Shown piece after piece: positions 55,873 through 56,568 of a stretch of 64,000 bases of DNA (within the stretch, counting starts at the first letter, position 1; the number at the start of each line of letters is the position of its first letter). The notes below the pieces were generated by a model that was not told the origin of the DNA, ran no database searches, and saw only the letters and a list, made by a program, of their open reading frames with translations. The DNA lies in the NCBI RefSeq assembly GCF_003334385.1, contig NZ_QOWN01000003.1. One strand, 5' to 3'. Origin of the DNA: Escherichia coli (GTDB taxonomy: Bacteria; Pseudomonadota; Gammaproteobacteria; Enterobacterales; Enterobacteriaceae). The position numbers and the translations under genes are program-made.

Positions 55873-56568
55873 ATGCTGAAGCGTTTCTTTATTACCGGTA
55901 CAGACACTTCTGTAGGGAAAACGGTGGTTTCCCGCGCATTGCTACAAGCGTTAGCCTCCCAGGGAAAAACGGTTGCGGGATATAAACCCGTAGCGAAGGG
56001 GAGCAAAGAGACACCCGAAGGGCTGCGTAATAAAGATGCCCTGGTGTTGCAGAGTGTTTCAACCATCGAACTGCCTTATGAAGCAGTTAATCCTATCGCG
56101 TTAAGCGAAGAAGAAAGTAGCGTGGCGCACAGTTGCCCAATCAATTACACCCTCATTTCAAACGGCCTGGCAAACCTGACCGAAAAAGTCGATCATGTCG
56201 TGGTAGAAGGGACTGGCGGCTGGCGCAGTCTGATGAATGATTTGCGTCCACTCTCTGAATGGGTAGTGCAGGAACAACTGCCGGTGTTGATGGTTGTCGG
56301 TATTCAGGAAGGTTGCATTAACCATGCACTGCTAACAGCTCAGGCGATCGCCAACGACGGGCTGCCGCTCATTGGCTGGGTGGCTAACCGAATCAACCCA
56401 GGACTGGCGCATTATGCGGAAATCATTGATGTGCTGGGTAAAAAACTTCCGGCACCGCTCATTGGTGAACTGCCTTATCTGCCGCGCGCCGAACAGCGTG
56501 AACTGGGGCAATACATCCGCTTAGCTATGCTGCGCAGTGTGCTGGCGGTAGATAGAGTCACGGTGTAA
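55873..56568 (+). CDS. ynfK: Dethiobiotin synthetase paralog YnfK (BioD2)
   Basis: ORF 55861..56568; start at [28 protein letters not shown] gives 231 aa as in K-12; P-loop GTDTSVGKT. Confidence 0.88.

Follow-up and report, generated by a model that had tools for sequence, protein, structure and literature searches.

The genes ynfK and clcB of Escherichia coli converge, and their coding sequences share 48 bp at the 3' ends. This overlap is real, it is old and it is already present in the K-12 reference annotation. We regard it as an ancient, annotated overlap of two real genes and not as a dedicated regulatory device. This reading, to which we assign a probability of about 80%, includes a model for the 3' end of ynfK mRNA in which Rho would terminate transcription inside clcB and a stem-loop built from clcB codons would cap the message.

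Gene ends, conservation and coding content of the overlap

The window, i.e. the whole 64,000-nucleotide stretch of E. coli DNA that was analysed, was inspected using a six-frame list of open reading frames together with the raw sequence. The TAA of the plus-strand ORF ynfK is at 56566-56568 and the TAA of the minus-strand ORF clcB is at 56523-56521 (complement tta at 56521-56523), and the coding DNA common to both genes is 56521-56568 (Table 1). Either stop codon falls within the coding sequence of the partner. Codon boundaries of the two genes coincide, with positions 1, 2 and 3 of one codon facing positions 3, 2 and 1 of the other (phase 123:321). The RefSeq/PGAP annotation of an identical E. 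coli chromosome, converted to window coordinates, has bioD at 55873-56568 and clcB at 56521-57813; the PGAP start of clcB at 57813 gives a protein of 430 aa. In K-12 MG1655 (NC_000913.3) clcB (b1592) occupies 1665315-1666571 on the plus strand and bidA (b1593), which is the current name of ynfK in the K-12 annotation, occupies 1666524-1667219 on the minus strand; their overlap, 1666524-1666571, is likewise 48 bp. The window is 100% identical to E. coli strain E308 over 2.3 kb, and compared to K-12 its YnfK is 100% and its ClcB 99.8% identical. An earlier note on this DNA had named the two genes and described their convergent layout and a 48-bp overlap. It was right in all three respects, as the ORFs, PGAP and the K-12 annotation agree, and alignment to K-12 confirms both stop codons.

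Table 1. Coordinates of the features discussed, in window numbering
Feature	Position	Strand	Description
ynfK (bidA in K-12; bioD in PGAP)	55873..56568	+	CDS, 231 aa + TAA; BioD paralogue
clcB	56521..57777	-	CDS, 418 aa from the K-12 start
Convergent coding overlap	56521..56568	both	YnfK L216-V231 + stop; ClcB L404-S418 + stop
YnfK codons 221-231, C-terminal extension past the BioD fold	56533..56565	+	BioD alignment ends at L220
ClcB codons 408-412 (S-I-Y-R-Q), conserved tail core	56542..56556	-	opposite YnfK L223-A-V-D-R227
Rho-dependent termination peak	56578 (K-12 1666514)	+ (K-12 -)	'primary' for ynfK, 'antisense' for clcB; Adams et al. 2021, PMC7815308, Supplementary file 2
GC-rich stem-loop ACCGGGGAGTA-gctga-TACTCCCCGGT	56611..56637	+	inside clcB codons 381-389 (T-G-E-Y-Q-L-L-P-G)
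Near-invariant tract CATTTCACATATCAT after the hairpin	56638..56652	+	seen in the alignment; U-poor

A megablast search with positions 55700-58000 against 5426 complete E. coli genomes found the locus in 5422 of them, with a coverage of at least 80% in 5416. Beyond E. coli, a ClcB scan with one genome per species yielded 19 loci, in each of which both stops were located, and look-ups of the context of YnfK orthologues added Klebsiella michiganensis, K. aerogenes, Buttiauxella, Kluyvera, Scandinavium and Dryocola. In every one of the 24 examined loci with an intact clcB, drawn from about ten enterobacterial genera (Escherichia, Salmonella, Citrobacter, Klebsiella, Kluyvera, Scandinavium, Dryocola, Buttiauxella, Cedecea and Entomohabitans), both stops are in place and the overlap is either 48 or 45 bp. 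The 48-bp form is present in Escherichia species, Cedecea, 'Enterobacter' sp. Ag1 and Cy-643, RIT693 and Entomohabitans, and also in the six taxa added through the YnfK context. Citrobacter species and Salmonella arizonae have the 45-bp form, their clcB stop coming one codon earlier. Synonymous sites elsewhere in ynfK and clcB are near saturation at the genus level, the same codon being used at 39-54% of identical amino acids, and therefore the conservation of the stop positions is not mere inherited sequence identity. The overlap is fixed in E. coli and conserved across core genera of Enterobacteriaceae.

What does the shared DNA encode? A PDB search aligned residues 3-220 of YnfK to residues 2-224 of E. 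coli BioD (1a82; E=2.9e-65). The BioD chain ends at the residue aligned with YnfK L220, and on the plus strand the overlap contains the last four residues of the BioD-like core of YnfK and an extension of 11 residues. This tail is variable save for the pattern x-[VIA]-D-R-x-x-[AV]. YnfK is 231 aa long in all 15 species of the codon alignment; among the orthologue clusters listed, most are also 231 aa, a few are 232 aa, and longer and shorter entries occur. For ClcB, the same kind of search aligned residues 5-402/410 to structures of the ClcA/ClC-ec1 family (E ~1e-26), and ClcB orthologues carry the Pfam domain Voltage_CLC. Structure alignments and codon-position entropies typical of purifying selection show that both frames are real protein-coding genes.

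ClcB residue 402 corresponds to ClcA/ClC-ec1 residue 437 without gaps, and residue 410 to residue 445 in the Salmonella ClC structure (1kpl). ClcB Tyr410 (TAC, 56550-56548 on the minus strand) thereby aligns with ClC-ec1 Tyr445, the tyrosine that coordinates chloride at the central site and lies where helix R begins. ClcB ends eight residues past Tyr410. Another tyrosine, Y384 in the hairpin codons, had been considered for the role of the ClC central-site tyrosine; this assignment is wrong, the structure alignment placing that residue at Y410. The alignments show the shared 48 bp to encode the functional C-terminus of ClcB, including the tyrosine that matches Tyr445. In the conserved core of the overlap, ClcB S-[IV]-Y-R-Q lies opposite YnfK L-x-[VI]-D-R. 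Only five 4-fold codons of ynfK are invariant; GTA of YnfK Val225 is among them, locked by the TAC of Tyr410 on the other strand.

Column entropies calculated by codon phase from 22 species reveal which of the two proteins shapes this segment. At ynfK positions 1/2/3 the entropies are 0.22/0.05/1.07 in DNA that codes for YnfK only and 0.98/0.42/0.75 in the overlap, where these positions equal clcB positions 3/2/1; in DNA that codes for ClcB only, the values at clcB positions 3/2/1 are 1.23/0.36/0.75. The pattern of the overlap matches that of clcB-only DNA and not that of ynfK-only DNA: the segment evolves as clcB coding DNA with a mild added constraint from YnfK. This clcB-like substitution pattern suggests that the YnfK tail is a weakly constrained passenger. 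Judged from sequence comparison, the tail appears to be largely a passenger but not wholly free. Three lineages, Kosakonia, Pseudescherichia vulneris and Trabulsiella, are devoid of clcB, and in all of them YnfK is still exactly 231 aa and D226-R227 are kept; Val225 has become Ala in Kosakonia and Pseudescherichia and is retained in Trabulsiella. In YnfK-like proteins that are further removed (43-65% identity), the tail has a similar length but an unrelated sequence; one of these proteins is encoded in the same ynfL-mlc-ynfK synteny without clcB. It is likely that the overlap arose as a short, sequence-tolerant YnfK tail came to be read through the 3' end of clcB, and it would persist because moving either stop would damage the ClcB tail or alter the length of YnfK.

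A stem-loop inside clcB and the 3' end of ynfK mRNA

There is no intergenic DNA between the two genes, and therefore the 3' signals of each must sit inside the other. A stem-loop that begins 42 nt past the ynfK stop is the candidate signal for ynfK. It is located 87 nt upstream of the clcB stop and therefore cannot act as a terminator of clcB. The GC-rich stem has 11 bp in E. coli, of which 9 bp are conserved. The stem-loop is the centroid structure of the region, with a folding energy of about -21.5 kcal/mol for the isolated segment, and RNAalifold independently predicts the same helix.

Codon usage in clcB points to selection on this structure. In a codon alignment of 15 species, only 5 of the 178 clcB codons that are amino-acid-conserved and at least 4-fold degenerate are invariant, and three of the five (ACC381, CTC387 and CCC388) are in the stem. 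CTC387 and CCC388 are rare codons. GAA379, just after the stem, is invariant in the same alignment. Among 23 sequences, 97.1% of the 207 cells of the 9-bp helix are paired, a value that none of 500 column shuffles reaches, and sliding the 3' partners by 1-3 columns reduces pairing to 30-56% of cells; it is important to note that these cell counts overstate independence because the sequences are phylogenetically related. One pair, G-C in most genera, is swapped to C-G in four sequences, from Klebsiella (two species), Kluyvera and Scandinavium. These sequences have the ClcB substitution E383Q (GAG to CAR) together with the change of L387 from CTC to CTG. This compensatory change may have happened only once in evolution.

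The hairpin is also found where clcB is decaying or gone. Two Citrobacter genomes contain a decayed clcB pseudogene in which independent deletions flank the hairpin and leave it intact. In clcB-less Trabulsiella, a hairpin CCGGGCAG...CTGCCCGG still follows the ynfK stop, and in clcB-less Kosakonia a canonical terminator, AAAAAAGCCCCTC-atcg-GAGGGGCTTTTGTT, is located directly after ynfK (L024 3697-3727). The codon, pairing and clcB-less-lineage evidence together suggest that the structure is selected for the ynfK transcript. Most probably the stem-loop is a 3'-end-defining, exonuclease-blocking hairpin that caps ynfK mRNA.

The sequence downstream of the stem bears on how such an end could be made. 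The tail UCAUUUCACAUAUCA contains 4 U in its first 8 nt and lacks a U-rich tract, and a consensus terminator scan with a threshold of 5 T or more in 8 gave no plus-strand call at the stem-loop. Since the tract after the hairpin is U-poor, it is not a canonical intrinsic terminator. A Rho-dependent termination region has been mapped to window position 56578, with 85 reads upstream and 11 downstream without bicyclomycin and 292 and 159, respectively, in its presence (Adams et al. 2021, PMC7815308). The Rho score at K-12 1666514 on the minus strand is 4.2 (p=1.5e-6), meaning that read-through rises under bicyclomycin; the coordinate lies upstream of the hairpin, which speaks against an end at the stem-loop, but it is coarse, being derived from 800-nt windows (PMC7815308). 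Several window starts from 56578 to 56708 have C/G ratios of 1.5-1.67 in ynfK-sense RNA, with lower values in between; for the window, the median is 0.95 and the 95th percentile 1.67. This is weak evidence for C-rich, G-poor (rut-like) RNA around and just beyond the hairpin. A class of stable stem-loops without U-tracts has been described that shield mRNAs terminated by Rho against 3' exonucleases and have rut sites a short way downstream (Dar & Sorek 2018, PMC6061677). The U-poor tail, the Rho region, the C-rich RNA and the resemblance to this class of hairpins together favour Rho termination followed by trimming back to the stem-loop. According to this model, the 3' end of ynfK would be made inside clcB, space for an intergenic terminator being absent. 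RNA polymerase would run beyond the stem-loop, Rho would terminate transcription in the untranslated, C-rich antisense-clcB RNA, and 3'-to-5' exonucleases would trim the transcript back to the stem-loop, which would then cap ynfK mRNA.

A different reading holds that the stem-loop, lying within clcB, is an intrinsic (Rho-independent) terminator for ynfK instead of a protective cap. We consider this possible but rather unlikely. The stem is strong and dominates the predicted folding of the region, an invariant TCATTTC follows it, and the fixed GAA379 preserves the UUU. Moreover, the canonical intrinsic terminator of clcB-less Kosakonia is at the equivalent place, and terminators inside the coding sequence of the partner have been predicted for 19 of the 58 convergent overlaps of E. 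coli, i.e. for a third (Lillo & Krakauer 2007, PMC2174442). Even with Rho inhibited, about half of the transcription is still stopped (159 vs 292 reads, PMC7815308). Against this stand the poor U-tract and the failure of the consensus scan to flag the plus strand, both described above, and the fact that bicyclomycin raises read-through 4.2-fold (PMC7815308). The curated Term-seq tables of Adams et al. (PMC7815308) list no 3' end there: they have no entry for ynfK or clcB, the names of which occur only in the Rho table, and expression is low. The TERMITe supplements, too, gave no match to ynfK or clcB. That no mapped 3' end was found at the hairpin weighs against the capping model as well. Finally, the features of the stem-loop match the U-less protective hairpins of Rho-dependent transcripts (PMC6061677).

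It could also be argued that the palindrome has nothing to do with ynfK, being a by-product of ClcB residues, an element of clcB mRNA (ribosome pausing or stability) or a structure with a role at the DNA level. The amino acids T-G-E/Q-Y/F-x-L-L-P-G are indeed conserved, but their conservation cannot account for the invariant rare CTC and CCC codons or for the switch to CTG exactly where Glu383 has become Gln. The hairpin forms on both strands with similar energy: folding energies calculated per species fail to separate the strands (mean -17.2 vs -16.6 kcal/mol; 11 vs 14 sequences), and over all 11 E. coli pairs in 17 sequences the two strands pair alike (89.8% vs 88.2%). Escherichia sp. MOD1 and Buttiauxella carry CTT, a change that is wobble-compatible in the clcB sense only. 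On the other hand, non-Watson-Crick combinations in the 9-bp helix amount to 19 G.U pairs and 6 mismatches in the ynfK sense and to 3 G.U pairs and 22 mismatches in the clcB sense (23 sequences). Wobble pairs thus favour ynfK 19 to 3, an asymmetry that is seen only with the conserved 9-bp helix on 23 sequences and makes the strand assignment suggestive, not decisive. In addition, the hairpin outlives both the decay of clcB into pseudogenes and its deletion, and a hairpin within the clcB ORF would be melted by translating ribosomes. A function unrelated to ynfK appears improbable to us, and a role in the ynfK transcript is the preferred interpretation. Rfam gave only a sub-threshold chance match at the hairpin (E=0.64).

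No comparable signal was found for clcB. A conserved clcB terminator inside ynfK was not revealed by the consensus scan, by folding of a single sequence (z=-0.31) or by RNAalifold with 19 sequences, all of which together yielded only weak short helices. A conserved U6 noticed there in the same search stems from Lys-Lys codons.

Complementarity of the two mRNAs and gene expression

The earlier note had stated that the two transcripts are antisense to each other at their 3' ends. The argument holds logically, as either mRNA has to reach its own stop codon: ynfK and clcB mRNAs are mutually antisense because both must contain the 48 nt. Their complementary stretch measures a minimum of 48 nt and is probably about 117 nt long or longer, since with the stem-loop as a cap at least 117 nt of ynfK RNA would be antisense to clcB mRNA. 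The same note had suggested that this can couple the expression of the genes. In our interpretation any effect of the complementarity on expression would be a side-effect. Because the segment evolves as ordinary clcB coding sequence, conservation of the overlap needs no regulatory explanation. Furthermore, ynfK keeps its length and a hairpin-type 3' end in the three clcB-less lineages and therefore does not need clcB.

A selected cis-antisense module, in which expression of ynfK and expression of clcB would depend on each other through convergent transcription, colliding polymerases or a duplex of at least 48-117 nt that is sensitive to RNase III, nevertheless deserves consideration. Complementarity of the mRNAs is unavoidable and the overlap is conserved across genera. 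As ynfK is directly activated by FNR (Myers et al. 2013, PMC3688515), an antisense input into clcB would be condition-dependent, and when Rho is inhibited, ynfK-sense transcription does enter clcB (PMC7815308). However, protein constraints explain the conservation more simply, and the lineages that have lost clcB retain both the length of YnfK and its hairpin-type 3' end. The bicyclomycin data indicate that Rho cuts short the ynfK-sense transcripts that run into clcB (Adams et al. 2021, PMC7815308), and in untreated cells antisense transcription is limited to 11 downstream against 85 upstream reads (PMC7815308). Expression of ynfK is low in LB; the reads over the gene (Adams et al. 2021, PMC7815308) and its activation by FNR (PMC3688515) are indirect evidence that it is expressed. 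Taken together, these observations leave a selected antisense module with a small probability, and an incidental consequence of the gene layout is the explanation that we favour. In its most explicit form the regulatory idea would be that anaerobic, FNR-driven transcription of ynfK extends at least 117 nt into clcB and lowers clcB output via collision or RNase III, the stem-loop and Rho setting its reach; we regard this as a long shot. If it were true, the overlap would be a conserved condition-dependent switch joining a biotin-pathway gene and a chloride/proton-transport gene, and the mRNA structure of one gene would dictate the codon and amino-acid choice of its neighbour (E383Q with L387 CTC to CTG).

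That the overlap is an annotation or sequencing artefact, i.e. a mis-called stop or a frameshift lengthening one gene, can be rejected with near certainty: many long overlaps in databases are indeed artefacts (Palleja et al. 2008, PMC2478687), but stop codons need no prediction, errors in start codons leave convergent overlaps untouched (PMC2478687), the two reading frames stay open as far as identical positions in 5416 E. coli genomes and in about ten genera, and the alignments of the two proteins with homologues of solved structure reach the start of the overlap or go past it.

Significance and comparison with known systems

The overlap itself changes nothing in our view of this locus: it is in the K-12 annotation and is one of about 58 convergent overlaps in E. 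coli. It has modest value as a clean, well-conserved example of dual coding, with a functional ClC residue on one strand and a tolerated tail on the other. A second stretch of clcB would double as the 3'-end hairpin of the neighbouring mRNA, where codon choice and one amino-acid change co-vary with the stem. 3'-end signals embedded in ORFs are known in principle for convergent overlaps (PMC2174442). We found no earlier description of a codon-built stem-loop with a compensatory change at this place, and as predicted from sequence it would belong to a known kind; a search of the accessible literature for the gene name bidA found no match. There are practical implications for strain engineering. 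Deletion or recoding of the 3' end of clcB also truncates YnfK and removes the ynfK 3' stem-loop, and 'synonymous' recoding of clcB codons 381-389 may be non-neutral for ynfK.

At 48 bp, the overlap of ynfK and clcB probably exceeds the typical lengths of convergent overlaps. The nearest relative is the clcB (b1592)/bidA (b1593) pair of K-12, where this very locus has an overlap of 48 bp as well; the overlap itself shows no difference, and the window represents another E. coli strain. More generally, the pair resembles other convergent overlapping pairs of prokaryotes, which likewise consist of two bona fide genes with overlapping 3' ends, and the literature on conserved pairs of this kind includes Rogozin et al. 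2002, a study that Palleja et al. 2008 cite (PMC2478687). Real longer overlaps occur only in the convergent orientation (Palleja et al. 2008, PMC2478687). The ynfK-clcB overlap is shorter than the class of more than 60 bp that is treated as 'long', and it is conserved at the family level, whereas most long convergent overlaps are found only in very close species (PMC2478687). Among the 58 convergent overlaps of E. coli, phase 123:321 accounts for 33% of those of at least 5 nt (Lillo & Krakauer 2007, PMC2174442). As in the rest of this class, terminators or other 3' signals have to sit within the coding sequence of the partner.

Two groups of RNA structures can be compared with the stem-loop. 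Like bidirectional intrinsic terminators, for instance the one after ynfK in Kosakonia, it is a palindromic GC-rich hairpin located between or within convergent units; unlike them, the hairpin of the window has no A- and U-tracts on both sides. With the hairpins of Dar & Sorek (PMC6061677) it shares a stable U-less stem-loop, a C-rich region just downstream and bicyclomycin-sensitive read-through. The ynfK stem-loop differs from these in being composed of codons that belong to the convergent gene, and it would be kept through synonymous codon choices and one non-synonymous choice.

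Conservation of YnfK relative to ClcB

The same species (the window at 55873-57777 and loci L003-L019) conserve the two convergent gene products to different degrees, with amino-acid identities of 82-98% for YnfK versus 56-93% for ClcB, at a synonymous divergence that is alike for both genes. An identity so far above that of ClcB at similar synonymous divergence implies, on comparative sequence grounds, that YnfK is under strong purifying selection, despite being a supposedly redundant BioD paralogue. Truncated YnfK variants of 216-227 aa are rare and were found in a protein search as singleton clusters. 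In one Shigella sonnei lineage ynfK (window 55873-56568) is reported to have been pseudogenised 8 independent times, and its SNPs there comprise 5 non-synonymous and 0 synonymous changes (PMC6811581). For YnfL (HusR), a regulator neighbouring ynfK, genomic SELEX has given a weak binding peak (PMC12844172, Table 1). The peak is assigned to ynfK, which has clcB on one side and mlc (dgsA) on the other; its coordinate, K-12 about 1,664,668 in an older coordinate system, lies within or near ynfK.

Repeated loss of clcB and the convergent 3' ends

Loss of clcB is a repeated event across the loci compared. The gene carries a TAG at codon 412 in E. coli strain E69 (L009) and is reduced to truncated, stop-ridden remnants in Citrobacter sp. 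Awk 4 and NCU1 (L020 and L021); Kosakonia, Pseudescherichia vulneris and Trabulsiella (L024, L030 and L031) have lost it entirely by deletion. Both clcB nonsense mutations within the overlap, CAG to TAG in L009 and CGA to TGA in L021, leave the encoded YnfK residue unchanged. In Kosakonia an osmoprotectant ABC transporter operon stands in place of clcB; the two convergent genes there are 28 nt apart, and a bidirectional terminator occupies this gap. The conserved U6 run on clcB-sense RNA has its source in ynfK codons K189-K190 (Lys-Lys, AAA AAA). This run is probably not a terminator, because folding revealed no convincing stem upstream of it.

Positions of clcB start sites and of 3'-end features
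Feature	Position	Strand or setting	Details
clcB start, K-12	window 57777	-	MFRRLL; 418 aa
clcB start, PGAP	window 57813	-	12 codons upstream of K-12 start (the 12 residues not shown); 430 aa
Conserved U6 run	window about 56400-56450	- (clcB-sense RNA)	~90 nt beyond clcB stop
Textbook bidirectional terminator	L024 3697-3727	between convergent genes	A-tract, 11-bp GC stem, U-tract

The two ends of ClcB

Annotations disagree on the clcB start within window 57778-57813 (-), and the reading frame is open as far as a GTG at 57837 (-). At the other end, alignment to ClC structures places 8 residues between the tyrosine aligned with Tyr445 of ClC-ec1 and the end of the protein (residues 410-418; window 56521-56550, -). 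Entomohabitans ClcB has Arg at the position of this tyrosine. Since it stops 8 residues past the aligned tyrosine, ClcB appears to miss most of helix R and all of the C-terminal tail found in ClcA.
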